In this document: positions 1 through 25,204 of the stretch, one piece after another
How the letters are laid out: every line of letters begins with the position of its first letter
Position numbering within the stretch: position 1 is the stretch's first letter
Virus record (IMG/VR): IMGVR_UViG_2541047915_000012
Length of the DNA: 38,067 bases
Source: a virus
Taxonomy: Duplodnaviria > Heunggongvirae > Uroviricota > Caudoviricetes
Direction: 5' to 3' (one strand)
Translations under genes and position numbers: made by a program
Notes under the pieces: model-generated
Told to the model about the DNA's origin: nothing
The model's input: the letters and a program-made list of their open reading frames with translations, nothing else
Database searches by the model: none

Positions 1-97
1 AGTCTTGAGTCTTGAGTCTTGAGTCTTGAGTCTTGAGTCTTGAGTCTTGAGTCTTGAGTCTTGAGTCTTGAGTCTTGAGTCTTGAGTCTTGAGTCTT
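1..97 (-). repeat. Tandem heptanucleotide repeat tract (AAGACTC on the minus/coding strand); 13 full copies plus a partial copy cut by the window edge
   Basis: Plus strand reads GAGTCTT x13 (7-97) with 6 nt of a further unit at 1-6; all copies perfect; lies inside the 5' coding end of the minus-strand ORF starting at 102. Confidence 0.97.
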
Positions 98-102
98 AAC
101 AT
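1..102 (-). CDS. neuO: 5' end of a neuO-like phase-variable O-acetyltransferase gene (partial; continues beyond window start)
   Basis: Minus-strand ATG at 102..100 with AGGA upstream; ATG-TTA followed by the repeats translates to MLRLKTQDSRLKTQDS...; repeat unit and position downstream of an endosialidase-like tailspike match the described neuO locus of K1 prophage CUS-3; gene body not in window. Confidence 0.55.
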   Translation of the reverse strand, partial: MLRLKTQDSRLKTQDSRLKTQDSRLKTQDSRLKT

Positions 103-255
103 ATTAGTATCCTACGTTATTTTACCACTAGTTACTTTTCTTGTCATTAAAAAGCATTTAAATTTTTATATTTAATTTCGTTGACGTCAATGTTTTTTGC
201 CAATGTACTTACTTCTTTATGTGATCAGTTCATATTTTTGACGCCAACGAAACAT

Positions 256-3201
256 TTAGTGCTTCCCTTCTATTAAGTCTAACCTAGCTTTTATTCTTTC
301 TATTTCTCTGCGCTGCCATGCTGCCTCGATATAGAATAAGAGATCAGGTCTGACCCCCCATCTAGATCCTGCTGGCGTTATTTCAACGCGCTCAATGATG
401 TCTTCCATTACCATCACTGGATTATCATCCTCATCAACAATGATGCTCCCGTCATTATCAGTCAGCGGCATTTCCCTTTGGCCAGTAATGACGTCATCAT
501 ATACTGCGGGATAATCGTCATAGCAAAGAAAGGCATAGCGGCATGTTGTGCTTTCTTCTTCCATGAGTCCGTGAGAAATAAGAACATCACGAAGTTGCTG
601 CGCGATTACACCATGATGTATCCTCGCCCCTTCTTCCCCCTTTATAGCGACAGCGTTCAGCCATTTATAAGCGATATACCTGACGTCACCCCAGGCATCC
701 AGCAATGTTTCGTCAGGAGAGACCGGCTCTGTCTTTAATGTTCCGTCACTGGTAACCACAGGATTGGAGCCAAGATAAACTATCGAGAACCTGTTTCCCG
801 GACCACCAAGAGCATTTACATTATCAAGATAAGGTTTAACATCTCCGTTCTCAAAAAGATGTTCGAGTGCGTTATATACCGCGCGACGTGGAGTACTGCT
901 TCTGGAACCATGCAACGTTATCATTGCACCATCTGCTGAAGACGTTGTTTCACCGCCGCTAACGATTAATCTCTGAGCGGTAACATCATCAGACGGTACT
1001 TTCTTCGCAATAATGGCGTAATTACCCTCAAGTTTGACTTCCGCGCGAACTTGTCCTGATGTACCTGCATGGACAGTCAGTGACTGGACGGCAACATCAT
1101 CTGTGAAATCAACGGGTACAGGAACCGTCCTCACGCCTGACGTCGACATAAAAGTAGGAAGCGTTCTGTTAGGAGTGGCTCCGTAGACAAAATCCCTTGA
1201 AACAAATTCTTCCTGTTTAATTTTCACCCTGAAACAATACAAATCAGCCGGGTGACCATCGTGAACATAAGGATATTTTCTGTTGTTATCCCCTATGCTC
1301 CATGGGTTTAGAAAGTCTTCCCCACCGAAAATGTAGTACAGCCAGTTGTCTTTGATACAAACTGAACCAACACCAACCGCAGAGTTAACTATTCCGCCCT
1401 GATAAATCTGATCAGTAACATTAACCCACTCTACATTATCCAGACTCCACTCATTGACGTTAACTCTGGTCATAAATGTTCTTGGATAGTTTCCTGCATA
1501 ACGGTTATCAGGTTCTCCTCCTTCCCACTCACCAAATGCGCGCTCACTGCCAAAAATAATCAGCTCATCGCCAACTTTGGCAAAAGGAAGGTTTGAGTGA
1601 TGAACATTATTTGGGAAGCGAAGAGAATTCCATGATGTACCTAAATCAGAGCTTCTGTGCAATGAACTACCGGGTTGAGTACTTAATGTCCCCCTGGTCG
1701 TCAGATACAGAATGCCATCATAATATTTTACACATGGCTCAGATGCATTCGCCTCATATTCTGCAGGTATGCGTCTGCGAACAAAGCTACCAGGAGAACC
1801 GAAAGCATCAGAGAAATAGAGTATCCCAAGCTCGCGTGGACCAATATCACCATTATGGTAGCCAACAGCAAAACTGTTATCGCTAATCGTCGCAAAACTG
1901 TGAATCTCAGTAACAGGAGTGCTTCCGTCAACAAAAGAAGGAATAGTTCCAAGACTGGTTTTTCTCCATGGTGACGAGTGAAATGATGTACCAAAACTCC
2001 AGTATCTACCCTCGTTATTCTGATCCACATCCTGGGTATTTTGCGTCGTAACTGTAAAAGTATTTTTATCAATAACAGTAGTCACCGTCATATTCCCGGT
2101 AACACCTGTAACACCAGAGTTTGAGAAGTTGACAAAATCACCAGCAAATAATCCGTGATCAGTAATGCGAATATAAGCGACTTGCTGATTTGCTGCTTTC
2201 GTTATACCACCATAAACGCGAAGGCTGCGACTCATTGGGCGATCCCACAACTCTGCAACCTGCAGTTTATTTCCGCTCACGGTCCGCGTCTCAATTACAG
2301 CAAAAAGGCGATTTCTGACAACCCCCATACTCATGCAGTGATAGTTAACTGTGGGATAGTTTTCATGTAAATCTGTAAGCCATTCCGGCGTTGTCCAGGT
2401 CTTCCCGTCATCTCCTGAGCGAACCCATGCAACATGGAGGTTATTTACACCATGGCGGTCTCCAGCCATAAAAGGCGCATAGATGACATTGTCATATACA
2501 AACGTTTTATCCTGCGTCCAGGCGTTGTACCACGGTGTATCTGTAATTTTAAATAACTCTCCCTGGATAAAATCTTCAGAAACATAAAAAAGAGGCTGAC
2601 CCGGTATTCTCTCAAATAAAAAACGAGCATTTTTAAATCGACTGACATCTGGAAGAGTTGATACTTTAAAAGTAAGCCCTCGCCCATCTATCTTTTCACC
2701 ACCTGTTGCAACAGAAAGTAATTCTGATAGAGCTGATGTATCATCATGAACACCATCACCAATAGCCCCCCAACCTCTTACATCATAACTGTCTCTCCAT
2801 CTTGCTATCTGAAGTTTTGGGTATTTATTCGCTCCATCTGGGTCTTCTAATTGCTGCCGTAGTTGATCAGGATCATACTTCAGCACATTCTGGAAATAGA
2901 ACTGCTGTACGCCATACGCATCGTACACAGCCATAGAATGGCCTTGCACAGTTACGAACTTGGCAATCCGTCCGTTATATACAGGGTAACCAGCAGCGTT
3001 AATGATGATTGGTTGCGAAACAGGAACGTGAGAGCCGTCTTCGTTCTCTACATAAACCTGAATCCGGTTTTCAGGATTTACCGGGTCAGTGTCAATTTTA
3101 CCGATATAAATTTTGCCATTGGCTACGGCTTTAAAAGAACGCGCCATAGTGAAGAGTTGCGAAGGCATCGATACAATCACATTGGCTGTAATGTCTGTCA
3201 T
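256..3201 (-). CDS. Tailspike protein, probable endo-N-acetylneuraminidase (endosialidase) with P22-type head-binding N-terminus and C-terminal intramolecular chaperone domain
   Basis: 981-aa ORF, GGAG RBS before ATG at 3201; N-terminal ~110 aa resemble P22 gp9 head-binding domain (MTDITANV...[19 protein letters not shown]...VTVQGHSMA); two sialidase Asp-box motifs SGDDGKTW and SSDLGTSW; C-terminal ~150 aa resemble autocleaving chaperone domains of endosialidases and tail fibres. Confidence 0.75.
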
Positions 3202-3258
3202 TTAATTTGCTCCAGATGCAAAGAATCGCCGCAGCATGGCCACGGTGAATTTTGGGCA

Positions 3259-3281
3259 TAAAAAAACCCAGCCGAAGCTGG
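3259..3281 (-). terminator. Rho-independent terminator between ant and the tailspike gene
   Basis: Minus strand reads CCCAGC-TTCG-GCTGGG followed by TTTTTTT. Confidence 0.6.
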
Positions 3282-3301
3282 GTCGTTGCGTTGGTTATCT
3301 G

Positions 3302-4204
3302 TCAGTAATTATGTACTGAAGGAGGTAATTCTTTATTCTTAAGTCTCATCCATGCGGAAAGATTCGTTGGTCCGTCTGGCTCATTGATATCAACATCTCG
3401 TGTGTGATTGATTAAAACGTCTCTCGCCATATCGATAATACGGGAGAACTCATAACCGCAGTCATGACATCTGCCGGAATAGTTCGATTGAATTTGTTTT
3501 AGCGCCGGATACAGTTCGCGGAATAATGCCTGTGAGCGGTTGGCATAATCCCATAGCCATACAAGGCTGTTTGCTTCTTTTGCAGAAAGCTCGTTGGTTT
3601 TCTTCTCTTGTTTGCCGATGAACTCACCTTCAAGCACTACCCTGTGGATGTACTCTACTGCTTGTGGTATCTGAGATGCATCAAGCTCTTCAATACTTTC
3701 CACATTGAAACGCTGATGAATCATTGCATAAGCTTCTGGGTACATTAGATGCTTTTTGCTGACTAGCATATTTACAGCATCACGAAGCGGAGTCCTGTCA
3801 TCAACAGATGTTTTCTTCCGTGCATTTGCTGCCTCTCCCTTTGTCCAGTAGTCATGCAGCACAGTAAAGCATTCTTCCTGGTACTGAATCAGTTTATCGC
3901 GGATGTCAGCACGAACTTTCTCAGGGTTGATGCTGAACAGCCATCCATTTAACTTCTTCAAAGGAAGGCAGAGTAGCTTACGAAGCTTACCATCAGCGGC
4001 AACCATGTTCATATGAACACAGTTGAATTTGCTAATCTGCTTCATGAGTTTTGTTTGCTGCGTTGACCAGCTCATTCCGAGGTTTTCAACGATTGGCTTC
4101 ATCGCAACATATGCAACTCCGGCAGCCATGGCGGTGATAATTTGCTGACCGTTGAATGGCACGTAAGAGGTGTTCACTGCTTCTAAAATTGCTATACTAT
4201 TCAT
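3302..4204 (-). CDS. ant: Antirepressor Ant (P22 immI type)
   Basis: 300 aa from ATG at 4204 ([21 protein letters not shown]...) with GGAG RBS; matches recalled P22 Ant length and N-terminus; tool ORF has a GTG-initiated 22-codon upstream extension judged spurious. Confidence 0.75.
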
Positions 4205-4436
4205 GTTGGTTTTTCTCCACGGATTTACCGACAACCGAAGCCCTGACTGTTCCAGCAGTTGGGGCTTCACTGTTTTGATTTCTTTGCCGCATCAAGCATC
4301 ACTTCTGAAAACGTGCGCTTGCCACTGAATACTCTTTCTCTTCTCAATTTTTCGTTCGTGCCAAATGATTCGCCATGAACAAAATTTGGTCTTAAAATGG
4401 TAATCGCAATCTCTTTGACTACTGCATCCAAGCGAA

Positions 4437-4589
4437 TCACACCGTTACCCCCTCTCTCTTCAGGCTGTCTATCAGGCGCTTGATAACCTCTGAGTTAAAC
4501 GACCTGCACTCTTCCTTTGCCCTGCTACCGATAGCATCCTTTAACGACTGCGGCATCCTTACCAAAATCTTACTTATTTCTTTCTCCAT
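4437..4589 (-). CDS. arc: Arc-like ribbon-helix-helix repressor
   Basis: 50 aa from ATG at 4589 with GGAGGG RBS; ...RSFNSEVIKRLIDSLKREG resembles P22 Arc (...RSVNSEIYQRVMESFKKEG); tool ORF starts at an upstream TTG. Confidence 0.7.
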   Translation of the reverse strand: MEKEISKILVRMPQSLKDAIGSRAKEECRSFNSEVIKRLIDSLKREGVTV

Positions 4590-4703
4590 GTTACCCTCCA
4601 CGCAAACAACTCTTTTCGAATACAAAAGATAGCAAAGTGAGTATATCTAGTCAAAATTTTTTTGCATACACTTTGCTATCAAATTGAATACCAAAGGTGT
4701 TAT
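4590..4703. promoter_or_regulatory. Divergent Pant/Pmnt control region with operator-like inverted repeats
   Basis: Between divergent arc and mnt; minus-strand -35 TTGACT (complement of 4651-4656); perfect 12-bp inverted repeat GATAGCAAAGTG (4628-4639) / CACTTTGCTATC (4669-4680) flanking it. Confidence 0.5.
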
Positions 4704-4952
4704 ATGGCAAAGGGTGTGTCAATTTCTCCAACTACGGTAAGAATCCCTGAATCTTTACGCGAGGCTCTTGCTGTCAGAGCATCAAAAAATGGTCGCTCTG
4801 TTAACTCCGAGATCGTCATGATTTTGCAAGCCGCGATTGATGAAGATAGGTCGCCAAAGTCAGTTGAGTCATTTGCTCAGCAAGAAGCTGATAAATTCAA
4901 AGAGGCGCTACTTGAGACGCTAAAGACCATGTATGCTAAGGATGAAAAATAA
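4704..4952 (+). CDS. mnt: Mnt-like repressor (Arc/MetJ family)
   Basis: 82 aa from ATG at 4704 (AGGTG RBS); ...ASKNGRSVNSEIVMILQAAI... resembles P22 Mnt (...EANGRSMNSELLQIVQDAL). Confidence 0.7.
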   Translation: MAKGVSISPTTVRIPESLREALAVRASKNGRSVNSEIVMILQAAIDEDRSPKSVESFAQQEADKFKEALLETLKTMYAKDEK

Positions 4953-5488
4953 TGCTGCACACAATTCATTTCTTATGCCCTGTTAACACTGCCACTGTTG
5001 GGCAACTTCAGAACCACTGTCTCACCGCATTATCTCAAGGCGCAACTGAATTAAATATCCATATATCAAGTCAGGGAGGGGAAACTGCTGCTGGCTTTAC
5101 TGCGTATAACTTTCTTAAGTCACTCCCTGTTACCGTTAGAACTCACAACATAAGCAATGTTGAATCCATAGCTAATATCGTTTTCCTGGCTGGCTCAGAA
5201 CGTTTCGCAAACCCATTATCAAGATTCCTGTTACATCCTCTATTATGGTGCTTTGCCTCCCCAGCCGCCGACCATGCCAGATTGAGAGAGTACGGGAAAT
5301 GCCTCGATAACGATCTTGATCGCTTCGTTGAGACGTTCAATATCGACATCGGAACCCATATTAGGTGGGCATCCCTGATAGCAGACTCGACCATTTTGGA
5401 TGCTAACAAGGCTCTTGAGCATGGCATAATTAATTCCATAAAAACTGCAAGGCTGGCATCCAATCAGGCAAACTGGTGGGTTGTTTGA
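4952..5488 (+). CDS. ClpP-like serine peptidase (Clp/crotonase fold), function unknown
   Basis: 178 aa; start overlaps mnt stop (TAATG). Alignable by eye to E. coli ClpP: IHISSQGG vs YINSPGG, ...VESIANIVFLAG vs ...AASMGAFLLTAG, SRFLLHP vs SRVMIHQP, ALEHGIINSI vs AVEYGLVDSI; candidate Ser/His/Asp triad present. Confidence 0.55.
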   Translation: MLHTIHFLCPVNTATVGQLQNHCLTALSQGATELNIHISSQGGETAAGFTAYNFLKSLPVTVRTHNISNVESIANIVFLAGSERFANPLSRFLLHPLLWCFASPAADHARLREYGKCLDNDLDRFVETFNIDIGTHIRWASLIADSTILDANKALEHGIINSIKTARLASNQANWWVV

Positions 5489-5510
5489 TGGGTAAATCAT
5501 GATTACTCCT

Positions 5511-5536
5511 TATAAAAAACCCACCTGACGGTGGGT
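5511..5536 (-). terminator. Rho-independent terminator immediately after the YafO-like gene (bidirectional position between convergent genes)
   Basis: Minus strand: TAA-ACCCACC-GTCA-GGTGGGT-TTTTTAT; perfect 7-bp stem, 4-nt loop, T-run. Confidence 0.75.
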
Positions 5537-5986
5537 TTAGTCAAACATAGTGTTTCTAAAGTCTCTCGCATACCCTGCTAACACTCTCATTCTATTATGA
5601 TTGTTAGCAGACATGTGAGCTACAGGATGAAAAAGAGCAATCAATGAATACCTGTTCTCATCAAAAAGATTTTGTGCATAAACGAGAGCGGTATTGGATG
5701 TTTTATGCCACTGCAACTTTTGCGGTGTGCTGATATCTGTGCCATTTTTTATTGGCTCAAATTTATTTTCACCAATTGCTAAATGAAGGTGCATAAGGCC
5801 TGCATCTTCAATATCAGGAGGTCGATGATAAGAGGTGTCTCTGCCAAAATAGCTGGGCAACGTTCCCGTAGACTTGTAGATGATAAAATCATCTACAAGT
5901 GTTTGTTTTAAATCAGGAAACTCAACAAAAACCGGGGAGAAAAAATAGTCAAAACTATCCTGATTATATTCCACGGTTACTTGCAT
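5537..5986 (-). CDS. YafO-family toxin-like protein (putative ribosome-dependent mRNA interferase)
   Basis: 149 aa, ATG at 5986 with GAGGT RBS overlapping upstream stop. Blocks shared with recalled E. coli YafO: DFIIYKSTGTLPSYFGRD vs DFISYKRDGVLPDIFGRD; MHLHLA vs AHIHLA; LIALFHPVAH...NNHNRM vs LIAILKPEPH...DNNQMH; C-terminal DFR vs AFR. Confidence 0.55.
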   Translation of the reverse strand: MQVTVEYNQDSFDYFFSPVFVEFPDLKQTLVDDFIIYKSTGTLPSYFGRDTSYHRPPDIEDAGLMHLHLAIGENKFEPIKNGTDISTPQKLQWHKTSNTALVYAQNLFDENRYSLIALFHPVAHMSANNHNRMRVLAGYARDFRNTMFD

Positions 5987-5994
5987 GTTTTACC

Positions 5995-6561
5995 TCAGTG
6001 GAAGTTACCAGAGTGAAACACACGAGTCCCGTGCTCAGCAAGCGCACGCAAACCAGCCATATCTACGGAACTATCAAAAACAACCGGAACACATGAGCGT
6101 TGTTTAATAAGACTATTCAGGTTGGTTACGGCAGATCTGGCATCAGCAACAACGATATAGATATCTCTTGCGATCTCTTTAAAATCAGCAGAAGCTTCTT
6201 TGAATACCGATTTCATTGCCCCTTCAAGTCCTCTCAATTGATGCTCTATCAATCGAGACTTTTCTGGTTCAATGATAGACAACACATTGTCTACATTCTC
6301 ATCGGTAGCGTTTGCAAGAACACGATAAGCGTATTTCAGCATTCGAGACAATTCTTTAATCGAAGACACCGCCTCATGAAGCTCATCATTAGCCCGTTCA
6401 CTGCTGAATGAGGATTGATGGTAAGCGTGCTGAACGTTATCAGTAACAACCACCTCACAACTGAACGCAGAAGCTTGCTGTAATAGCAAACCTATTGCGA
6501 CTCCAGCTTTGGCAGCGTTCAAGCTAAACATTTCATCAATCCCATTAGTCTCATTGCTCAT
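5995..6561 (-). CDS. Hypothetical protein, upstream operon partner of the YafO-like gene (not recognisably YafN/RelB/Phd-like)
   Basis: 188 aa from ATG at 6561 with perfect AAGGAGG RBS 5 nt upstream; stop is 8 nt before the YafO-like ATG; tool ORF begins at an upstream TTG. Confidence 0.6.
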   Translation of the reverse strand: MSNETNGIDEMFSLNAAKAGVAIGLLLQQASAFSCEVVVTDNVQHAYHQSSFSSERANDELHEAVSSIKELSRMLKYAYRVLANATDENVDNVLSIIEPEKSRLIEHQLRGLEGAMKSVFKEASADFKEIARDIYIVVADARSAVTNLNSLIKQRSCVPVVFDSSVDMAGLRALAEHGTRVFHSGNFH

Positions 6562-6736
6562 ACAAACCTCCTTCTTATCGGAGATTATCAATAGCTATGC
6601 ATCCATTGAATACACGCTATGCGCAATAAGTTTACGTCACGTGATATCATTATGCAACCACCGTTCTATCACCGACTAACTTTACTCCCACTCCTATACA
6701 TCATCTGGTATCCTGCGCAAAACTAAGGAGGTTGGT

Positions 6737-7087
6737 GTGAATGCTCAGTCTGTCATCATGGTTTTCCTTGGGCTGATTGTCGCAAAACTATATCCAGACT
6801 GGTGGAAAGGGGCATTAGCTACTGTCGCCATCTATTTGCTTTTATCCATCGTTAAGCGATCACTCGCTGAGACCGTAAATCAAGCAAAACGTTTCTCATT
6901 TAAGAGTTTAATAAACTATGTTACTGGGCTTATTTTTTGCCTTTCAATTCTGATCGCTTCGGCTTTTTTGCCCGTATCAATAGCTAATTTTTTTGGCGCA
7001 CCATATGAGGTAGGTTATCTATTCTCTGTTTCCTGTCTTGCCATTGCTCTTCTTTACCTGTGGACGAGATCAAAGAATAAAAATTAG
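6737..7087 (+). CDS. Small integral membrane protein (about 4 predicted TM helices), candidate superinfection-exclusion-type protein
   Basis: 116 aa, GTG start preceded by AAGGAGG; hydrophobic stretches VIMVFLGLIVAKLY, ALATVAIYLLLSIV, LIFCLSILIASAFLPVSIANFF, VGYLFSVSCLAIALLYLW; divergent from the 5995-6561 operon. Confidence 0.55.
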   Translation: MNAQSVIMVFLGLIVAKLYPDWWKGALATVAIYLLLSIVKRSLAETVNQAKRFSFKSLINYVTGLIFCLSILIASAFLPVSIANFFGAPYEVGYLFSVSCLAIALLYLWTRSKNKN

Positions 7088-7104
7088 CCATCCGTGGCTG
7101 CCAG

Positions 7105-9121
7105 TTATTGAGCTTCTTTTTGTGATGCCTGTGCGACTCTGGTGAGCGATTGTGTGACCGTACTGATCGCTCTGTCATATGCTGTGCTACCTTTTGGCGT
7201 ATTTGCCAGACGTAACAAGGCATTTCGTATAACAGGGCTTTCGTATGCCTTCGCAGCTCCTCCTACGACACCAGCAGCAGGAACAACAAACGCAGCCGTT
7301 TTTAGCATCCCCGCTAATACTGCTGCGTTTATGATGCCACCACCAACTAACAATCCATAAAGCTGCTGACCATTTAAGTTTTGAACGTTCGCTTTTGCCG
7401 CGTGTCTTGTATCGTTGAGGTATTTAATAACGCCGTCCAGTTCCTTTCCATGTACGCCTTTAAAGAAAGTTGCTGATTGCTTCCTGTTCCGGTGTAACGC
7501 ATTAATAAACTTTTCAACACTAATATTTCCAGACGGATCAGTCGCCTTATCTACAGCATTCTGAACTATGGCTGCTCGTGCGTTTTGCCTACCATTGTCA
7601 TCCAGAAGCCTGTAAAGCTGAGAACGTTCTGATGGGTTTTGGCTAAAAACGAGTTTTGTTACATCCTCAGGTGTAGCCTTGCCGCTGGCTATTGCCTTTT
7701 GAACGCGCGTTCTTCCCATCATGTCATTGAATCTAGCCCATGAGCGATCAACCCTAGACATATTGGCAGCTTCTTCTGAGCCTAGTTTTTGGGATACTGC
7801 TTTTTTCATATCCGCTGTATATGCCTTGTAGACAATATCGCTGGCTTTCTGGAGCGTGTCTTTATCAACAGTCTCGTTTGAATTCATGAACCGCTTTCGA
7901 AGGTCAGTTCTGTTTTCTCTCGCCAGACGCAGGTCATTGGGTCCGCTGGTGATATCGTCTTTAAATTGCTGCAAGACTTTTACCGCGGCTCTATCCTGAG
8001 ATTTGCCCGGGCGGCTTAACACGGCAATCTGATTGTCGATAGCTTTTACCGTGTTTGAGAGATCGACAGGGGTATCCCCCATAGCGTCAATTATGCGGTT
8101 ATATCGCTTTCCTGCTGCCTCAATGAATTTTTGTTGCCCTTTAGTCGCAGATTCATAAAGCTGTTTATCAGAAATGCCACCCAGACCATCGCTAAATGTT
8201 CTGACTAAATTTTCTCGTGCTTGTTGTTGATTCAGCCGATTCTTACCGGTTCCAAAAAAAAGGAACTCTTTCGCCTAATGTCTGAGCCTGACTCTGCATA
8301 AAGGTTTTATCTTTCAGCGTGTCACTGGTCATTAACGGCAGGTTTCTTTCCGACGCAAAATCGACAGCAGCCTTTGCTTCCGGTGACATCTCACCGCGAA
8401 CAGCCCTGGAAACCGCACTAACTGTATTTTCCAGCCCCTTGCCAACACCACCAATGCCAGCAGAAATTACCGTTTGTGCAGGATCAATATCTTCTCCGCC
8501 AGCAAGGCTGGTGCCACCCTGTAGTGCTAAATCTGTAGCAGCTGATTTCCCTATGGCACCAAGCACCGTTCCAGCCCTGCCCGCTGGTGTGAACGCTAAC
8601 GCATTAGCAAGAAACGAAGTCAGGTCTTGCGGTGATAAACCTGGCTTGTTCAGGGCATAATCACCGGATGGCAGGGAAACGATAGTGTTACCCTTCTCAT
8701 CCTGCCTTAATTTCGCCCCCATACTCTGAAGAATCTTTTCCTGAGACGCGTCGGAGCCGAAAAGTTGAGACCATCCAGCCTTCAGGGCATCCATGCTTAG
8801 TGAGTTCAACTCAGGGGCAGCCCCAACATTTTGCAGTCTCTCCATTTCTGGTGTCATTCGGCTTTCACCGGTAACGGCATCGCGCATTGCAGCACCTAAA
8901 ACAGCCCCTTGCTCAGCAGAGCGATCTAGTCCTTCCTTCTGCTGAGTGGCAAGCTGTGCATATCCTGATGCAAGTGAGTTGTCTGCTGGCGATTGCTGAA
9001 CACCTTGTTGTGTTGGCGCTGACTGACCAGCAAAATACTCATCAATGGCGGACCCAATATCTTCCGTGCTCGTACCATCAGGAAAGGTAAATGTCTTACC
9101 ATTTGCAGTTACTTTCATCAT
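7105..9121 (-). pseudogene. Ejection protein gp16 homolog with reading frame interrupted at an A8/T8 homopolymer
   Basis: Two same-strand ORFs (8243..9121, 292 aa; 7105..8082, 325 aa) where P22 has one gene 16; the downstream ORF frame stays open upstream through the homopolymer at 8254-8261, so a 1-nt change would fuse them (~670 aa). Confidence 0.5.
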
Positions 9122-10569
9122 TCCACCGTAAATTGAATGCCTGATTTTGACGTGTAGCTACCTCCTGCTGATTGCTGAGTAGCTGGCTGTTGCCTTGATG
9201 ATTTCTTCCCGCCATTACCAACATTAACGTTATATTGCTGGTTGTAATTGTCGGTATATTGCTGAATGTCGCGCATTGATTGTTGCAGCGCTTCAGGACT
9301 TGAGAAATCAGGCTTTGGCATACCCTGAAAATACCTATTGGCCTCTGCTTCGGTGTTGATGCCAGATGCCCCCATATCTCGGGCTGCTGCAATCCCCTGA
9401 TTTTGCATTTTGCCCATGATTCGCTGTGCAGCGTTGTATAGCCTCCTCTCCTCAACACCAGATGCCCTGCTACGAATATCTGCACCAAGAGCAAAAGAAC
9501 CTGAAGAACCTGTAATACCTGTCATGAAGCCAAGATCGTCAATTGATGCGCCAGAAATTGCATCAAGATCTTTCTTCATTTCGTAATTCTGTGCATTAGC
9601 TGCCGATGTAGCCGGAGCAGCAATAGAACTGGCGGGGACGCGAATCATATTGCCCTCGTTGTCTATTCCTTCGTAGAACGCATTAGCACCAGCGCCGTGA
9701 AGCTTCCTACCAACCGTTACCGTTCTGCCATCTGCCAGTTGCACAACATTCTCCCCGCCAGCATCAGGACGACCTCGAACACGAAGATATGTCTTTTGTT
9801 GCTCTGGAGACAGGCTGTTGAAATATTGATATTCTTTAACAGATGCAGGAACAGCACCTCCAGCAGTGCGCAGGGAGTTTTCACGGCTAACAGCAATGCT
9901 TTGCGCCTTTAAACCTTCCCCAGCTTTATTGCTGCGAATCGTCTCTGCCAACTTGCCACGCTCAATATCCCGACCTTCCATTTGATCTTTGATATCGAAA
10001 TACTTCTCATGACCGAGAGAAAATAGTGCCAGATTACCTGCGAAGTGCTGGAAGCCCTGCGGGTCATTAACCTGCATTTCCGCAATAGTTTCTGGAGGGA
10101 TACCTAAACGACGCATCTCCTTTTCGTTATCCATCATGAACCTGCCAAATGCACCCGGACCAAGCGACGAAGCGACCTGAGCCTTAAGCGCCAGATTGCC
10201 AAAATCATCCCGCTGGGCGTCATCGACATACCCCATGCCTTTACGGACTTCCTCAAACTCTTCGGGGAATGCTGTAATAAGATTACGCATCTGCTCCCTG
10301 TCGCCGGACGCATAAGCATCCGCATAACCTTTCTGGAATGCCGCTTTACGCTCCTGCTTTTGCTGCTGCTTATAAATATCAGCAACTCCAGCCAGACCAC
10401 GAAGACCTGTCAGAGCAACGTTATTTGCACCTGATCGAGCCAGTTCATTGTTTTCGCGGATCAGACCAAGCGTTGCGTTAATGTCGCTTGCCTTTGGCGC
10501 ATTCTCATTTTGCGTACCGATGCCAGCCAGAAACCCACCAGAATTAATACCCTGTTGCCACGTAGCCAT
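9118..10569 (-). CDS. Ejection protein (P22 gp20-like)
   Basis: 483 aa; position between gp7-like and gp16-like genes and size match P22 gene 20. Confidence 0.6.
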
Positions 10570-10579
10570 TGATTACCCC

Positions 10580-11272
10580 TTAAAACAACGAGCCAAGCAG
10601 ACCAAGACCAGCACCGATACCAGCACCCCACGGAGTTGATAGCTCGAGAGCACTGGCTATGCCACCACCCAAAAGCGCACCGGATGCAGCACCACTAACA
10701 CCCTGCTGCAATGCTGACGGTCGGTTGGCGTTTGCCGCTGCAAGAGCCGCGCTTTGCTGTGAAATCTGACTCATGTTGTTGGCATATGTTTGCCCGGCGT
10801 TTGCCTGCCCCTGAAGAGCGCCAAGACCGATATTTGCCAGGTTGTTGTAATTGTTCATTTGTCCAGATAGCCATTGCTGACCAAGCGTTGGTGCGATTGT
10901 TGCTAACTGATTACTGGTTGCGGTGGAACCCAATCCACCTGTTGCTTCCGCTGCCGCCAGACTCTGATAGCGAGCCTGACCTGCAAGGTCTTTATACTGC
11001 TGAGAGTTGTAATACTGGTTAAGTGCCTGACCTTGCCCTTCCAGAGACGATAAGTTCTCAAGGCTGCCGACATACTTCCCAGCCAGAGGAGTAAACAGCT
11101 TCAGGTTGTTCATGATGGTGTTGAACTGCTGATTTTGCAGGTCTGCGGCATACTTCTGAGCTTCTGCTGCATACTTTGCGCTTTTATCAGAACTGCCACC
11201 TTTCCCGCCTTTTTCAGGGTAATAAGGTTCCTCGCCGCGCAGTTTTCTGCCCAGCGTAAATGCATATAACAT
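10580..11272 (-). CDS. Ejection protein (P22 gp7-like)
   Basis: 230 aa, Gln/Ala/Gly-rich with glycine-rich hydrophobic C-terminus; synteny and size match P22 gene 7. Confidence 0.6.
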   Translation of the reverse strand: MLYAFTLGRKLRGEEPYYPEKGGKGGSSDKSAKYAAEAQKYAADLQNQQFNTIMNNLKLFTPLAGKYVGSLENLSSLEGQGQALNQYYNSQQYKDLAGQARYQSLAAAEATGGLGSTATSNQLATIAPTLGQQWLSGQMNNYNNLANIGLGALQGQANAGQTYANNMSQISQQSAALAAANANRPSALQQGVSGAASGALLGGGIASALELSTPWGAGIGAGLGLLGSLF

Positions 11273-11274
11273 GG

Positions 11275-11730
11275 CTATCTCCCGTGATTCAGGAAGTCGA
11301 TTAGTTCTTCGCGTGTGGCGCTGTAAAACGTCACGTCATCCACGCCTTTGAAGTATTTCTTGATGGTTCCTACACGCTTAAGGCCAATCATTGCGCAGTA
11401 CATCTGCCCGTGGCGGAATTTGCGTGCAGCAAATGATGTGACGCACTGAACGGTGGTGTTGGTCAGAATGTATCGCCAGAACGCCAGCCCTATTTCCTTG
11501 CTGAAGCCGCGAATCTCTGGCAGGTACATGGCGTGGCAATCGAATGTAAGCGGCTGAATCTCCTGATAGTAAACAATGCCGCCAAACTGACCGTGCACGT
11601 TCACCTCAAAGTAACGGCAATCAGGTTTGTAGTCGTATCCATCACCGTTGTTGCTCCCGGCGATGATGTCAGGGTGATTTCCTACTGCTTCGATCAGGTC
11701 GATGTTTCGCGTTGGTTTGAATGTAATCAT
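11275..11730 (-). CDS. Head/tail assembly protein (P22 gp14-like)
   Basis: 151 aa; located between gp26 and gp7 homologs as in P22. Confidence 0.5.
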   Translation of the reverse strand: MITFKPTRNIDLIEAVGNHPDIIAGSNNGDGYDYKPDCRYFEVNVHGQFGGIVYYQEIQPLTFDCHAMYLPEIRGFSKEIGLAFWRYILTNTTVQCVTSFAARKFRHGQMYCAMIGLKRVGTIKKYFKGVDDVTFYSATREELIDFLNHGR

Positions 11731-12431
11731 CAGTCAATCAGCCCATGTAATCTAAGTGCTGTTTCAAGCGCCAGAATACGCTGCCGCGCCTGCTCCAAAC
11801 CTGTAGCGATAGCTGCGACTTCGGATTGTGTGTACGTAGTGCCGACCGTGTATGACTGGTTAGCGTTGAATGAGCCAAGAAGTGGTGTGCCTGTGGCCGC
11901 TGTCCATCCGGTCTGCCTTGCTCCAACGACCTGAATTCCATCAACTGAATATGATGTTTTTACATCCAGCGGTGACGCAAGAGACTGCGATTCTGTTACG
12001 GTTTTCGATACGTAATCACTCTTAATGTCAGATATATCGCTTTCTACGCCATCCAGTCTTTGGTCAACAGTGACCAGATGCGCCTGAATATCGATAACCT
12101 CATCCAGCAAGTAATCAACATCGCTACGCAGTACAACTATCTTCCCTTCGGCGGTTGTTAACCTGACCTCAAGGAGATTTATCGCTTTTGTGTTTGCGGT
12201 GATTCTTGCATCGTGGTCAGCCAGTTCGACATCCTGTTCATCGTTTTTCACCTGAGCATCGTAAGCGCCCTGACCAGCCTGATTTGCTTTCCCGGCAATT
12301 GCGCCGACATCAGCCCCCTGATTAATGACATACAGCAGGTAAGACTGGCTGAATATATTGCGTGGAAGGATTGATGTATCGAGCCGCGTCGCCTGCACAA
12401 TAACAGGGGTGTTGAGATTCGAATCAGCCAT
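11730..12431 (-). CDS. Tail needle protein (P22 gp26-like)
   Basis: 233 aa from internal ATG at 12431 ([18 protein letters not shown]...); N- and C-terminal regions (...[24 protein letters not shown]) match recalled P22 gp26; start overlaps gp10 stop by 1 nt. Confidence 0.75.
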
Positions 12432-13849
12432 TACTCGATCCTTATCTGGCAGCCAGACAGAGTGACAGGTGACTTCGTGATAACGCGCAATTTGAAGCCG
12501 ACATTTTTCCTGATGCGCCCGACTCGCTTCCACAAAACGCGTTTGTCGTAAACAAACGGTTCATTCTGCTCAATCATCTGCTCACGACCGTAATTGATGC
12601 CGTCAGTGGTTGCAGAGAGAAAAAGGCGGTCGGCGTACTGCGCAACGCCAGTTGAAGATTCAACTTCAAGGTCGAAAACTCTGGCGTTATCCGCTTTGAA
12701 CAGAGGAGTAAACAGCAGATGCTCCTGTTGCTTGTCGTACTGGCTGCTGATGTCGAATTGCAATTTCCCGGTCACGGACTCCAGCTTATCGCCGCACGTT
12801 ATCTGATTGCCTTCGTAAATGAAGTCGATAGCGCGGTACACATCGTCATACAGACCTGTTTTCAGTACACACCATTGCGGAGCATTGGCGCTTGAAGATG
12901 CGTCGTATACGAGGACATGGCGCGGAAGATGGATAATCAGCAGCTCATGCGCATCAAATCGCAGAGACTCCATCACACCATCAGCCAGTTCATCAGCAGT
13001 GTAGGAGCGAAGAATTTTCTCAATGCTCGCGCTGGCGATTGGTGACACCTGCCCGGAACCGATGATGTATACAGACGGCGCACCTGTTGCCGGATTGCTG
13101 ATGAACGCATAGGAATCAGCGAATGGCGTTTTGCAATAGGTTCCGGCGATGCCTTTTTGCACCATCAGTGATGGCTGTGCGACATACAAAGCAGCACCAA
13201 CGGTGGTTGCGCCAGTCAGGGAGAAATATTCAATAGTCGATGAACCAAAGCAGACGATGAAGTCTCGCCATGTCCCGATACCGATGATGCCGTCCGGCTG
13301 CGATTCTGCGCGATATTGTGCACTGTATCGGTCAGGGTGCGATTCGTCTTCAAGGTCAGTGATAAACCATGAATCAGTTCCGTCTTTTGACCACGCATAA
13401 CGCCCACGTAAGCGAGTAATGTCGCGAACTGAACCTAACTCATACTGCGTGAATCCACTGTCTGTAGGCCAGTTTGAGACGGTTTTAACCGTGCCATCAT
13501 AACGATACTCGACCAGTTGACCATTAACGCCTACAGCCTGTGATGTTCGACCATGCGCCATTGATACGCGACCACTTCCGGCGACGTCACCGACTTCGCT
13601 TTCTCCTTTGTACAGCTTGCCGCCACACACGCGATAAACAGCACTCTGCGCCATGTTGTACTCGACGCCGCGCGATATACCATTCACATCAGAACGTTTG
13701 GCAATGCCCGGGAATGAGCGAAGATATCCGCTGCTGTTCAGGATTTCTTTGGGCGTAGCCAACATATTCACTGGCAGATAGTCGATATAGTCGGCGTTTC
13801 GAAAGTCTTTGCCGACACCTTTCATAAGCGGAAGTTGCTGAATCGGCAT
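12431..13849 (-). CDS. Tail accessory protein (P22 gp10-like)
   Basis: 472 aa beginning [16 protein letters not shown]..., same length and N-terminus as recalled P22 gp10. Confidence 0.75.
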
Positions 13850-13858
13850 TTATTCACC

Positions 13859-14320
13859 TCACGTACTCGGATCATCTTTCTCGATGTAAAACCGATTCCA
13901 CGTAAACGCGCTTTTGTTACCACTACCGCGAGGCATGTCATTTCGCCGCTCAAGTGGTGGTATTTTGGTTAAAGCGATACAGATTGTCTGATATGCACTG
14001 TCAGCAGCGGTAAGGAGAGCGTCTGACGGCTGAATGACGTTATCCATGCACACTTGCACAGCGAGTTTCAAAGCGACGCCATCATTTGCCCATGCAGGGA
14101 TGCCTGAATCATCGTCAGGTAACGGCATGATGCCGTTTTCTGTATCAGCAAACTGATACCCAAGCTCGATACCTTTCGCCTGCCATGCTGCCATCATGTC
14201 TTCGAGGTCATTAATGGCATCTTCAATTGCCTGAGGGTCAGCATCTGTCAACGTGGCATTGGAATACAGCCCGGCTTTTCGTAAAGCCTTTAGAACGAGA
14301 TCACCCTTCGTTTTCGCCAT
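13859..14320 (-). CDS. Head completion / tail accessory protein (P22 gp4-like)
   Basis: 153 aa; KTKGDLV..ALRK.G..S.ATLTD..PQ...DA..DLE.MMA.W resembles P22 gp4 N-terminus. Confidence 0.65.
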   Translation of the reverse strand: MAKTKGDLVLKALRKAGLYSNATLTDADPQAIEDAINDLEDMMAAWQAKGIELGYQFADTENGIMPLPDDDSGIPAWANDGVALKLAVQVCMDNVIQPSDALLTAADSAYQTICIALTKIPPLERRNDMPRGSGNKSAFTWNRFYIEKDDPST

Positions 14321-14489
14321 CTTCTTCCGCCTTAGCCACTTTTTGCTTCGTTGCGGTTTCTTCAGGAGTTTTTACCCAACCTTTTTTCAGGTGAGATTTA
14401 ACTTCTTCGTCATCAACAATGATGTAATCGACAGCAAACTGACCGCAGGTGATCATGTTGCCTGGCTTATAGAGCATTGTTCGTGCCAT
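14301..14489 (-). CDS. Small hypothetical protein between coat and gp4 genes
   Basis: 62 aa from ATG at 14489 with GGGAGAAG RBS just downstream of the coat-gene terminator; no recognisable homolog. Confidence 0.35.
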   Translation of the reverse strand: MARTMLYKPGNMITCGQFAVDYIIVDDEEVKSHLKKGWVKTPEETATKQKVAKAEEDGENEG

Positions 14490-14500
14490 TGTCTTCTCCC

Positions 14501-14527
14501 AATAAAAATGGGGCCGAAGCCCCACCA
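14501..14527 (-). terminator. Rho-independent terminator after the coat gene
   Basis: Minus strand TGGGGC-TTCG-GCCCCA followed by TTTTTATT, 4 nt after coat stop. Confidence 0.7.
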
Positions 14528-14530
14528 AAA

Positions 14531-15784
14531 TTACTGCCCAGCAATAACGATGCCCGTATATTCAGGAACCAGTACAGAGCAACCGTACAGAGTGGTGAAA
14601 CGCGCAGTGGTTACGCCTTTGATGTGGTCGAAGGAGTAAGACATGATCAGCGTAGCGCCCTGCTCGGTGGTTGCTGTCATTACCTGTGGACCCTGACCAG
14701 TTGGGAACGCCAGTTTGCCGTACATCAGTTCAACAGAACCATCAGCCCAGAACAGGTTAGCAGGTGCTGCGTTCTTGTTGAGAATGGTGATTGCTGCTGA
14801 TTCTGCCGGTTTGGCATCGACGTTTGCATATGGACGACTCGCAACATCAGTATTTTCAACAGGGAGAATCTTTGGAGAAATTGTTACGGTAGTTCCGCTA
14901 ACAGCCAGAACACGGAATACCTGCGGTTGACCGGTGGTATCTTTTGTGATCTGGTGTACGGAATTCACACCGGCAATGGTGAACGCATCACCAACCTGCA
15001 AGCCAGATGCAGATACCGTAATAGTCCCCTGTCGGTTATCAACTGGCATACCATTTGAATCTTTCGCTTCAACCTTGTGTTCAGGTTGGCCTGATACTGT
15101 CAAGGATTCAGTGCTTCCTTTCGGTAATCGACCAGAAATATCGGTCTTGTAGCTATCAAAGGAAGCAACCGGAGGGATCTGCGCTTTTTCGTATGCTGTC
15201 AGGGTTGCGCCCTGAGCGTAGGCTCGGTGACCAAGCTCGCCAGCAAGGTCTTTGTAGTTGAAGGGGTTCCAAAAAGAGCGGCGGTTGATACCCTGTGGCA
15301 CACCAATCGCCGTCATGGTGGCATCAATACCTGCCGCACAGTTCCACAAATCACGGCCCTGTGAACCAGTGGTTGAGTCAGCCATTGTGATCACGTTAGT
15401 AGCACGCTGCGTGACCATGGAAATCAGGTCAGAGTCAATCTGTGCAGCAAGGCGCATACCTGCGGCGCGACCAGCTTCAGTTTTATGCTCAGGGTCACGC
15501 ATTTCACGCGCATCCAGAGTGTACAGAATGTTTTTCGGCTCCTTGAACACTGAAGGAACAAGGCGCTGAACCAGTGCTGTTGGCGTTTTGCTGCTGAGGT
15601 CGAGGCCTTCCTCAATGTTCATGTGGTAATGCTGCGGACGATACAGAACATCACCTGCTCGCTGCATTGCTGTATCACCGGGACGGAATTTTTTAGCGTT
15701 ACGGGAAACTACGCAGGCGGCCTCAAAGCCTTCAACGTAGTTTTCGAACATGATTTCAAGGTCTTTTGCTAATTGGTTATCCAT
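14531..15784 (-). CDS. Major coat protein (P22 gp5-like)
   Basis: 417 aa; position after scaffold gene and size match P22-like coat; followed by a strong terminator. Confidence 0.7.
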   Translation of the reverse strand: MDNQLAKDLEIMFENYVEGFEAACVVSRNAKKFRPGDTAMQRAGDVLYRPQHYHMNIEEGLDLSSKTPTALVQRLVPSVFKEPKNILYTLDAREMRDPEHKTEAGRAAGMRLAAQIDSDLISMVTQRATNVITMADSTTGSQGRDLWNCAAGIDATMTAIGVPQGINRRSFWNPFNYKDLAGELGHRAYAQGATLTAYEKAQIPPVASFDSYKTDISGRLPKGSTESLTVSGQPEHKVEAKDSNGMPVDNRQGTITVSASGLQVGDAFTIAGVNSVHQITKDTTGQPQVFRVLAVSGTTVTISPKILPVENTDVASRPYANVDAKPAESAAITILNKNAAPANLFWADGSVELMYGKLAFPTGQGPQVMTATTEQGATLIMSYSFDHIKGVTTARFTTLYGCSVLVPEYTGIVIAGQ

Positions 15785-15802
15785 GCTTAATGCTCCGATA
15801 GG

Positions 15803-16696
15803 TTATTTTTTTGCCTTTTTAGCGGCGAAATACGGCGTCCAGTCACCAGTTTCCAGCGCCTTGGCTTTCAATTTGTCGAGGTTGTTGATTACTGCGCCGT
15901 TGCTCCCCTTAACCGTCGGGGTTGTGGCTGCCGTGGTTTTTGCTTTTGGCATGATTCTGGCCTTCGATTCGATACGTTCCAGCAGACGACCAATTGCTAC
16001 GGGGTTGGTAGCTTCTGCCAGTTGCTTGCGCAGTTCAGCGTTGCGACCAAGCGCCAGAACAACGATTTCCGGCTTCTCTGACTCAAACAGGATCGCGTTT
16101 TGTGTCTCGATGGGGATTTCCTCGAGTACGGCCTGCTCAGCTTCCTGATAGCCAGGAACTTTGAGAGCCTTAACACGTTGCTGATATTTGGATAATCGCT
16201 CTTGATAGGCAGCCTGAAGCTCCTGCTCCTTCTGCTTGCGAGCCATCTCCTGTTGCTGGTACTTGCCATTATCCTCTGCCCACTTAGCCATGCGTTGCTG
16301 GTAGATTTCTTCATCGAAACCGATGTCCTCATCATCCAGTTTTGGCATTCGCGGTGGTTGAGTGATTACCGGCTGCTGCTCGACGGGTTTCTGAGACTGA
16401 CGCATCAGCTCTTTCAGCTCGCGGTCTTTCTCTTTAATCGTCTTGCGCAGGTGTTTTACCAGTCCATGCTCAGCGCCATCTTCGCTGGTTGGCGAATCCA
16501 GCTTTTCGTCACCAAAGTAGAATTCCTGTTCTGATTCGTCGTCATCAGTTTCAGTAGCCTCCTCTGCATCATTGCCTGAGGACTCACTGCCATCTTCTGT
16601 TTCGACTTTTTCAGCCAGTTCGACATCATCAGGAATCTGCTCTGACGCGTCGGTTTCGATTTCAACTTCTGGTGTGTTTTCTGCCATCTGGTCCAT
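15803..16696 (-). CDS. Scaffolding protein (P22 gp8-like)
   Basis: 297 aa, highly acidic and helical, located between portal and coat genes. Confidence 0.65.
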   Translation of the reverse strand: MDQMAENTPEVEIETDASEQIPDDVELAEKVETEDGSESSGNDAEEATETDDDESEQEFYFGDEKLDSPTSEDGAEHGLVKHLRKTIKEKDRELKELMRQSQKPVEQQPVITQPPRMPKLDDEDIGFDEEIYQQRMAKWAEDNGKYQQQEMARKQKEQELQAAYQERLSKYQQRVKALKVPGYQEAEQAVLEEIPIETQNAILFESEKPEIVVLALGRNAELRKQLAEATNPVAIGRLLERIESKARIMPKAKTTAATTPTVKGSNGAVINNLDKLKAKALETGDWTPYFAAKKAKK

Positions 16697-16786
16697 TTGT
16701 TACCCCTGTTTACTCGATGTTCAGCCCATCGGAAGGCAATAGGGTGCCAGGCCTCATAAAGACAGCCATTGCACGTTATGGGTTAA

Positions 16787-18985
16787 TTACTGCTGTGGTT
16801 GTTGCTGAGTTGATTTTTGCAGGATGCTGCTGATGTCCATGCGCTGCGCATGGCCCTGTGCCTGACTTTTCAGGACAAGCTCTGCATCAGCACGGGCATT
16901 GTCTCCTTGCTGTTGCTGGAACTGTCCGAGCAGTTTCAGAGCCTCGCGGATATCAGATTTCTGCTGGCTATCGGCAGATGCGAGGATTTTCACAACATTT
17001 GCCGCTGCAACCTGAGCATCAGTCTGTGCCTGGAATGCTTTAACCTGAATGGCTGCCTGCTCGTTCTGCGCTTTCTGCAATTCAGCCTGACCAGCAAGAA
17101 GCTGACCTTGCGCAGCAACCATAGCCGGATCTGGCTGACTGGCCTGTTGTTGTTTCGCCTGCTCAACCATCTGCTGTTCTTCTGGCGTTCTCGGCTTGAT
17201 AACTCCAGACAGAAGCAACTGATTGCGGTTGTATTCTTTAAGGTCGTCCATCCCTTCGCCGTCCATATTGTCGAGGATCATCGACGATACAAGGTCGTGT
17301 TTCGGCGTTCCGGGCGGGATAAGTGCCAGCATGGAAAGTAACGACTTAACCGTTGCGTCACGGCGAGTAGCGAACGACTGACCGACATCGACAGTCACTT
17401 CATAGTTACCCTGCGAAAGGTCGTTAAGCGCGATAACCTGCCCTGTCTGACGGTCAACCACTTCACCAGTCATCAGCGCCACGTCATCGCTGCCGTCCTC
17501 ATTAACGATACGCATCGGCGTATCGCTGCCATAGACTTCACGAGCCATAGAAAGCCACACAACGCCAGCGCGACGCATGGATTTAGCCATGTTGTCCATG
17601 TAGATATAGGACTGCGTATCCATCCGGTTAAAGATGCTATCAACGGTATCGGTAGCAACGTTGCTCGGCATGTTCTCAAGCTGCGACGCACCTGTAATTT
17701 GCTGAATAGCCGTTCCGGTGTACTGCAATAGCCCGGCAAGAGCTGGAGGCATTTGTGTCGGAGGCGTATAACTGCTGACCTGAGCCTGCGCAGTAATATC
17801 TCCGTTTTTGTTTTTCAGACTGACCATCGGCAGGAACGCCGGGCGCTTTTTGTTGCGCTCCGCCCAATGAGTGGCGAGAGGACCAGGAATCATGTCAACA
17901 TCAACTACAGGAATGCCATCACCGCCAGCCTGAGTAGCGTTATCTGCAATCATGGAAACCATCAGGTTCTCAAGACGCTGTGCATCCATCGCTTTTGCTG
18001 CGTGGCCTTCGATTCGTTCCTGATTATCAACAAATGAGCGACGTCCATATACCGGGATGAGAGGAATATGTTCGCCCGGAATACGCTTCGGTTCTTCCAG
18101 CCATTCAGCGCCAGACAGAAGGCCGCAATAAACGCGGCGTTTCTTCACCGTTCGCTCGCCAATCAGTTCGAATGCACCATCGGTCAGCTCGTCGACAATA
18201 TCTTTGATTTGCTCTTCATCATAGATTGCCGTTTCTCCGCTAACAGGGTTGCGCCATGCCGTGAGCTTCACCTTCTCTATGCGAACTTCGTAGTAGCGCC
18301 CAACATAGATGGCATCTGGCGTTGACCAGTCATATTGAGTGCCAGTCTCATCACGAGAAAGGCCTGCCGCGATGGAATCAGGGTATTCAGCCTCGAACGC
18401 TTTAGGCGTCATGGAGAACATTTCCATAGCCCACATAGCATCAGAACGGTCATATTGCTTGCTGTCCTGATCGAAGAAGACGCATGTCGCTGGGTCGTAA
18501 ACAGGAAGAAGGCTGATGCGTCGCTGCTCGTTACTTGGGTCCATTTCATCTTCGTAATCGGCACACATGCGGAAACAACCGAATCCGCCCGTTACAGCAT
18601 CATCAAATGCGTTATCACACGCTTCGCCACCTGATGTTTCCTGATAGTCAGCGCGGAATTTGCCGTTCATCTTTTTGGCTAACGCTTCCGATGCCTTGTC
18701 ATCCTTCGGCCTGAATTTAACGCTGATGCGATTCTGTCGATACTCGCCAATGATGCGATCACATTCACGGGCAATCTTATTCAGTTCAAAGCGCGGGTAA
18801 TGCTCAAACCTGCCTTCATCAAATGAGTAACCAGCGTTTGTGCTGCCTTCCCACTGTGCGCCGGATACCCGGACGAAACGTTGAGCCTCAATAATCTGCT
18901 CACGCATATCCTGCGTTGCTGACCAGGCATTATCAAAGTTGCACAGCACCTTGCGATGCCAGTCAGTCATCTTTTTTTCTGCCAT
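16787..18985 (-). CDS. Portal protein (P22 gp1-like)
   Basis: 732 aa; motifs RRVY...AGEHIP.IPV.G and Gln/Ala-rich C-terminal helix (PEEQQ...DPAMV.AQG.LL.GQAEL.KAQN) resemble P22 portal. Confidence 0.8.
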   Translation of the reverse strand: MAEKKMTDWHRKVLCNFDNAWSATQDMREQIIEAQRFVRVSGAQWEGSTNAGYSFDEGRFEHYPRFELNKIARECDRIIGEYRQNRISVKFRPKDDKASEALAKKMNGKFRADYQETSGGEACDNAFDDAVTGGFGCFRMCADYEDEMDPSNEQRRISLLPVYDPATCVFFDQDSKQYDRSDAMWAMEMFSMTPKAFEAEYPDSIAAGLSRDETGTQYDWSTPDAIYVGRYYEVRIEKVKLTAWRNPVSGETAIYDEEQIKDIVDELTDGAFELIGERTVKKRRVYCGLLSGAEWLEEPKRIPGEHIPLIPVYGRRSFVDNQERIEGHAAKAMDAQRLENLMVSMIADNATQAGGDGIPVVDVDMIPGPLATHWAERNKKRPAFLPMVSLKNKNGDITAQAQVSSYTPPTQMPPALAGLLQYTGTAIQQITGASQLENMPSNVATDTVDSIFNRMDTQSYIYMDNMAKSMRRAGVVWLSMAREVYGSDTPMRIVNEDGSDDVALMTGEVVDRQTGQVIALNDLSQGNYEVTVDVGQSFATRRDATVKSLLSMLALIPPGTPKHDLVSSMILDNMDGEGMDDLKEYNRNQLLLSGVIKPRTPEEQQMVEQAKQQQASQPDPAMVAAQGQLLAGQAELQKAQNEQAAIQVKAFQAQTDAQVAAANVVKILASADSQQKSDIREALKLLGQFQQQQGDNARADAELVLKSQAQGHAQRMDISSILQKSTQQQPQQ

Positions 18986-18986
18986 A

Positions 18987-20839: not shown

Positions 20840-20841
20840 GT

Positions 20842-21923: not shown

Positions 21924-22001
21924 ATACGGCAGTTCTCAGGCTCAGCTTTCTGAAAGACTCGGGATTGTTACGCGCTGCGATGCGCGGTTTACTGCAGATA
22001 T

Positions 22002-23796: not shown

Positions 23797-23868
23797 TGAA
23801 GTGGTTTACTGAATTTGGCCACCTGAACAGAGGTGATATGCTCACCTCAGAACAACACAGGTGCCATA

Positions 23869-25016
<1,148 letters not shown>

Positions 25017-25204
25017 CTCGGTGGCCAGTTTTTGTTGACCACTTCAATATGACCGGCACGGTGTGCCATATCACGGACCGGCGGGTGTCTCGTTCACCTG
25101 ATTAACGCATCAGCCTGCGTATTCACCACAACGATAAGAGTACTGCGCGGCACCTTTCACCAATTCCGCGAGGTCTGCGGGTTCAATGCTCTTACCTGTT
25201 GTGC

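Follow-up and report, generated by a model that had tools for sequence, protein, structure and literature searches.

A T7-to-T8 expansion has probably made a pseudogene of a gp16-family ejection protein gene in a defective P22-like prophage of Escherichia coli

Introduction

In P22 and in hybrid phages, gp16 is a virion component that leaves the particle at infection and is needed for delivery of the DNA, where its role is as part of a membrane-bound DNA-delivery conduit (PMC10461980). The locus considered here raises the question of why a gene of this family should be divided between two reading frames precisely at a homopolymer. It lies in a 38,067-nt stretch of viral DNA, which we refer to as the window and to which all positions apply. 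The original prediction, made from the nucleotide sequence alone, held that an A8 tract at 8254-8261 splits a gp16 ejection-protein gene into two ORFs, and left three explanations standing: a pseudogenising slip, a homopolymer sequencing error or a slippage-regulated site.

Results

The reading frame breaks at a run of eight T residues

The plus strand reads AAAAAAAA at the tract, such that the coding (minus) strand carries T8, and both the position of the run and the change of frame at it are as originally proposed (Table 1). The upstream fragment, ORF-A, ends in GERVPFFWNR, that is, in QAQTLGERVPFFWNR, followed directly by its stop codon. The downstream fragment, ORF-B, initiates at the first ATG of the remaining frame, spans 8082..7105 on the same strand, and encodes 325 aa equivalent to residues 346-670 of the intact protein. 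The two ORFs are separated by 160 nt (8083-8242), again as predicted. Upstream of the ORF-B initiation codon, its frame stays open for 64 codons; 57 of these, the number given previously, separate the T run from the ATG, and a further seven pass through and beyond the run to reach 8274.

At the break, the coding strand reads GGC GAA AGA GTT CCT TTT TTT TGG AAC CGG TAA. Removal of a single T converts this to CCT TTT TTT GGA ACC GGT AAG, which is translated within GERVPFFGTGKNRL, and fuses the two frames into one product, of 670 aa if counted from the start codon chosen by PGAP (the NCBI annotation pipeline) and of 671 aa if counted from the first ATG. The fused protein and WP_000868966.1 of E. 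coli S88 have the same sequence. The expectation that one base either gained or lost would yield a protein of about 670 aa thus stands for the loss and fails for the gain: a T9 version would read CCT TTT TTT TTG GAA CCG GTA AGA ATC GGC TGA, with a stop within a few codons, and the frames are joined only by the removal of one T or the addition of two. The run by itself is unremarkable, there being three matches to A8 or T8 in the window against 4.4 +/- 2.7 expected from shuffled sequences; it is the coincidence of the frame break with the run that is non-random.

Table 1. Coordinates of the gp16 gene remnants, the neighbouring ejection protein genes and the ISEc52 copies in the window
Feature	Position	Strand	Remarks
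T8 homopolymer (A8 on the plus strand)	8254..8261	-	Frame-break site; intact ancestral T7 = CCT TTT TTT GGA = P-F-F-G
ORF-A, 292 aa, N-terminal gp16-family fragment	8243..9121	-	Residues 1-289 as in the intact protein, then out-of-frame WNR and stop
C-terminal frame of the gp16 gene	7105..8274	-	Open from 8274; first ATG at 8082 gives ORF-B
gp20-type ejection protein, 483 aa	9118..10569	-	Directly upstream of gp16; PF16928 Inj_translocase
gp7-type ejection protein, 230 aa	10580..11272	-	PF25688 P22_gp7; completes the 7-20-16 order
ISEc52 copy 1, 1250 bp, ATA target duplication	23797..25046	+	Between the Q antiterminator and holin genes, upstream of the late operon with gp16
ISEc52 copy 2, 1250 bp, no target duplication	28338..29587	+	Abuts the 3.5-kb deletion relative to S88
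ISEc52 copy 3, 1250 bp, ATG target duplication	31806..33055	+	Early-left region

The fused product is a full-length member of the gp16 family

The assignment to the gp16 family is based on PHROGs, on precomputed PF26808 (Phage_P22_gp16) matches and on tblastn. Residues 1-669 of the fused protein align significantly with positions 2-667 of the 668 in phrog_770 ('DNA transfer protein'; E=4.3e-172), so that the match extends over the full length, and each fragment accounts for its own end of the profile: ORF-A covers positions 1-265 (E=1.4e-49) and ORF-B positions 325-667 (E=4.9e-98). PF26808 is recorded both for the ORF-A product and for all of the database homologues. Our local Pfam and NCBIfam profile scans gave no match for the fused protein or for either fragment, the copies used evidently being without the PF26808 and 'P22-gp16 family' models, and a search by sequence for a solved structure matched none. 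In tblastn comparisons, the fused protein resembles gp16 of the characterised P22-like phages BTP1, SPN9CC and MG40 over its whole length (31-32% identity, 100% coverage, E = 9e-62 to 5e-67), and it is 28% identical to the 'injection gp16' of APSE.

The genomic context is that of P22-type gp16 genes. The gene is the last of a 7-20-16 ejection cassette, which itself comes after head-completion genes of the gp4/gp10/gp26 type; the stop codon of the gp20-type gene, which in S88 is annotated as a 'phage DNA ejection protein', overlaps the gp16 start codon (ATGA). The window gene therefore has in common with gp16 of BTP1, SPN9CC and MG40 the full-length alignment (~31%), the PF26808/phrog_770 membership and the cassette, although it represents a strongly diverged sequence type, its function is assigned by likeness, and the window copy is cut at residue 289. 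Among isolated phages, the closest homologue is ORF13 of Escherichia phage N7 / HZ41 (Lederbergvirus), which is 69.9% identical at the amino acid level over 100% of the length, is encoded in one frame and, like the window gene, sits after gp7 and gp20.

A member of the family is expected to be encoded by one ORF of about 600-720 aa. The homologues compared, from E. coli, Citrobacter, Yersinia, Salmonella, Klebsiella and others among many Enterobacterales, are each a single protein of ~660-670 aa, which bears out the premise that P22-like phages encode one gp16; moreover, all phage homologues with at least 80% coverage align as one frame. Since the gene is divided into ORFs of 292 and 325 aa in the window and is a single ORF in every T7 relative, the window holds a disrupted member of the family, that is, a pseudogene. 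The break point is itself informative: an alignment of 108 family members reveals a conserved motif, ER[IV]P-[FLYI]-[FA]-GTG, which crosses it, so that in the window 'ERVPFF' and 'GTGKNRL' are read in two successive frames. As the break cuts through a conserved motif, it argues for one frameshifted gene rather than two genes.

The window derives from a mosaic prophage related to CUS-3

Exact matches to ORF-A and ORF-B are found in EQY01772.1 and EQY01771.1, respectively, both from E. coli UMEA 3206-1, and scaffold KE702029.1 of GCA_000460795.1 shows 100% identity to positions 1-19121 of the window (19,121 nt compared). These matches place the window in E. coli UMEA 3206-1, of which it is a contig; the prophage on it is P22-like, mosaic in structure and related to CUS-3. 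In S88, the counterpart prophage lies beside tRNA-Arg, between yfdC and dsdC, and encodes an endosialidase tailspike.

Relative to CUS-3 itself (CP000711, from E. coli RS218), the window is 98.5% identical across 1-3634 and 99.65% identical across 10366-23799. The likeness takes in the genes for the endosialidase tailspike, the head and lysis, and the heptanucleotide repeats of neuO are adjacent. Only 2 nt separate the start of the window from a scaffold gap of 10 N (in the 19100-19160 region of the scaffold locus), which lies within the AAGACTC repeats of neuO, a phase-variable O-acetyltransferase gene. In contrast, positions 3635-10365 (6.7 kb), which include gp16 and most of gp20, belong to another mosaic module that is unrelated to CUS-3 DNA; for gp20, 53% identity to CUS-3 is found over the first 214 aa only. 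We had expected the split gene to be gene 16 of CUS-3, but this was ruled out, as the CUS-3 gene 16 protein (719 aa) is of an unrelated sequence type (BLASTP E = 1.3). Because it is not detectably similar, the complementation data for the E proteins of CUS-3 (PMC10461980) apply to the window gene by analogy only.

The same module holds an arc/mnt region and, beside the ejection cassette, two accessory genes, both of which are also present and annotated in S88. One encodes a ClpP-family protease (178 aa; 4952-5488, plus strand), and the other a YafO-family type II toxin (149 aa; 5537-5986, minus strand), next to a gene for a 188-aa hypothetical protein. Elsewhere, a difference at 36048 (GCACCCTGG in the window, GCACCTGG in S88) affects a YfdS-family gene that is annotated as frameshifted in S88; strain AH21I008 is the same as the window at this position and has an intact 172-aa product, and it is S88 that is mutant there.

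Relatives have seven T residues

The counterpart gene in S88 is identical to the 2017-nt gene of the window but for a T7 run, and its 670-aa product is annotated as a 'P22-gp16 family phage DNA ejection protein'. Indeed, over positions 1-23799 the extra A at 8254 is the sole difference between the window and S88. More generally, the strains that carry WP_000868966.1 in an argW prophage (S88, APEC O1, MS7163, AH21I008 and others) share the gene DNA, the gene order and the integration context with the window, but have T7 and a single 670-aa ORF in place of T8. Two of the carriers can be placed still closer: AH21I008 and ESBLEC_HM50 share with the window the left junction of ISEc52 copy 1, which identifies them as its closest relatives. 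As both have T7 and an intact WP_000868966.1, the T8 allele is derived and private to UMEA 3206-1.

Broader surveys gave the same result. With a 400-nt query, all 60 of the best complete genomes matched over 399 nt, one base short of the window; with a 200-nt query, for which records were sampled evenly down the whole ranking (381 records), the full-length matches (59 of 59) were of 199 nt, with identities down to 85%. Between them, some 110 complete E. coli genomes were scored by match length, and seven of these were confirmed at the sequence level; a member of the 85% identity group has CCC TTT TTT TGG, which is also T7. Additionally, contigs with exact flanks were scanned for any run of 5-12 bases between them, and T7 was recovered in 48 of 48 (18 from IMG/VR and 30 metagenomic), with the frame open on both sides in nearly all. 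The run is confined to a PFFG subclade: most homologues have PIAGTG, PLAGTG or PYAGTG at the motif and no run, and phage N7, with PIAGTG, likewise has neither the run nor the frameshift of the window. Relatives with two separate genes and a conserved stop at this point, the finding that was to decide against a split of one gene, were sought, and there were none; all those examined are T7 and single-frame.

The gene and its prophage carry other lesions

The prophage is damaged well beyond gp16. It contains three copies of ISEc52 in direct orientation, two of which are identical, whereas the third differs by one base. The deletion beside copy 2, which corresponds to 30623-34178 of the S88 locus, has removed a portion of ninB together with the genes for the replicative helicase and the replication protein. 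Copy 1, in the position given in Table 1, may or may not block late transcription. With three insertion sequences and both of the replication genes gone, the prophage is not a viable phage, whereas CUS-3 is one; gene 16 is consequently without purifying selection, and nothing selects against the T8 lesion. A T9 run at 31057-31065, the longest homopolymer of the window, lies ~16 nt past a LexA-family repressor gene; it does not vary between strains and probably belongs to a terminator.

Nor is gp16 broken in UMEA 3206-1 alone. ZJ3920 and E10 have an inserted A, which changes GATCGCT to GATCAGCT at nt ~199 of the gene (~8922 in the window); such alleles are annotated by NCBI as frameshifted pseudogenes in two strains, and the insertion is probably common to 17 of the 40 best matches, these being the records with a 2017-nt span. 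In APEC E12053, an insertion sequence lies within the gene, whereas in HVH 59 and AHB12 an IS junction falls immediately 3' of the T run, and HVH 127 has one after the residues DKQL. To judge from these alleles, the gp16 gene has been inactivated independently in related E. coli strains.

Discussion

Taken together, these observations make it likely that a private T7-to-T8 slippage mutation has given rise to a pseudogene in an already defective prophage. The pseudogenising slip is thus the best supported of the three options originally offered, given relatives that are otherwise identical, with T7 and a single 670-aa ORF. Replication slippage would most likely have added one T to the CCT TTT TTT GGA sequence encoding P-F-F-G. 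Translation would then leave the gp16 frame after Phe289 and terminate three codons on, to give the 292-aa N-terminal fragment, while the C-terminal 381 codons would be out of frame and ORF-B would be merely what follows the first ATG in the remnant. A loss of function is what the truncation implies. We regard the lesion as an ordinary homopolymer frameshift, of interest for annotation only: EQY01772.1 and EQY01771.1, now entered as two 'hypothetical proteins', should become one frameshifted gp16-family pseudogene. The case also shows how the decay of prophages makes fragment ORFs, and how frameshifts and insertion sequences recur in one gene across related E. coli.

A different reading is that UMEA 3206-1 truly has T7 and an intact gp16, the extra base being a homopolymer miscall. 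The difference is of one base, it falls in the second-longest A/T run of the window, T8 is unique among all the relatives examined, and the rest of the 23.8 kb is as in S88. Set against this, the exact T8 ORF-A is present on four contigs, of which one is at NCBI and the others, 20-50 kb long, come from assemblies that include those of Logan, produced with another pipeline, although these may go back to the same source reads; recovery of the allele in four contigs makes an error less likely. Moreover, ten other listed runs of at least seven bases, among them the T9 run, show no indel relative to S88 or AH21I008 in the aligned blocks, which argues that homopolymer miscalling is not general in this assembly. 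The Broad Institute assemblies of the UMEA series were presumably made from Illumina reads, and Illumina reads rarely miscount a homopolymer of eight. The suggestion of a sequencing error, then, loses ground in the light of the four contigs, and we consider it unlikely, albeit with a modest share of the probability still attached to it.

A slippage-regulated site is a far more doubtful proposition. The idea would be that the run signals programmed recoding or switches full-length gp16 by phase variation, or that it provides for two useful products. Certainly, slippage by E. coli RNA polymerase can be measured on a coding-strand T8, since ~10% of a +1 reporter is rescued by deletion of a U on T8 (PMC6260861), and, as read from the sequence, the exact wild type would be recreated by either a transcriptional deletion or a +1 ribosomal slip. 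In many bacteria, however, A/T runs prone to slippage show signs of being selected against in coding regions from nine bases onwards (PMC1088944). The arrangement lacks the conservation expected of programmed slippage and the tract-length polymorphism expected of a contingency locus: T8 occurs in the window and in none of the ~110 genomes and 48 contigs, the broken frame is not shared by relatives, and the run itself is absent from more distant homologues. The absence of length variation, together with that of the run in distant homologues, leaves this part of the original proposal unsupported. The out-of-frame tail amounts to three codons only, and the host prophage is defective anyway. There is also no stimulatory RNA structure, the fold being equivalent to that of shuffled sequences (z = -0.02); on the same result we rejected a hairpin or terminator role for GUUCC-U8-GGAAC, at which no terminator-like site is found. 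We likewise attach very little credence to the particular version in which T8 is a reversible 'off/low' state, with a trickle of full-length gp16 from transcriptional (U8 to U7) or +1 ribosomal slippage, a return to T7 by replication slippage, and hence a T7/T8 contingency switch governing the infectivity of the prophage.

For the pseudogene that we favour, a slight leak through transcriptional slippage may nonetheless occur, as a by-product and not as a designed control. It could arise through a U8-to-U7 deletion during transcription or through a +1 slip of the P-site tRNA-Phe on the U run, and either route would produce the exact wild-type PFFGTGK in a small fraction of transcripts or ribosomes. 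The closest parallels are the non-programmed rescues by transcriptional slippage (PMC1088944, PMC6260861 and PMC4256274), which likewise involve a frameshift in an A/T run; at the present locus it lies in a coding-strand T8, where the loss of one U from the mRNA would restore the ORF. The locus differs in that its disrupted state is not conserved and any rescue would be conjectural. If rescue does take place, it would be a minor case of leakage in the expression of a structural gene of a phage.

That gp16 is naturally split into two real and separately functional genes is scarcely credible: the exact ORF-B is present on 40 contigs and there are PHROGs families that fit the pieces, but the fragments examined come from different lesions of one gene (the inserted A and the IS insertions described above), the break halves a conserved motif, and ORF-B has neither a sigma-70-like promoter in 7900-8500 nor, by eye, a Shine-Dalgarno-like sequence upstream of its ATG. 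The families concerned are phrog_29117 (327 positions), which is labelled 'head morphogenesis' and corresponds exactly to ORF-B (window 7108-8082), and phrog_29864 (399 positions), which is labelled 'transglycosylase', corresponds to residues 1-380 of the intact protein and is matched by window 8246-9121. Both look as though pieces of disrupted gp16 genes gave rise to them, their labels being misleading, and would thus be instances of spurious database families founded on the debris of decay.
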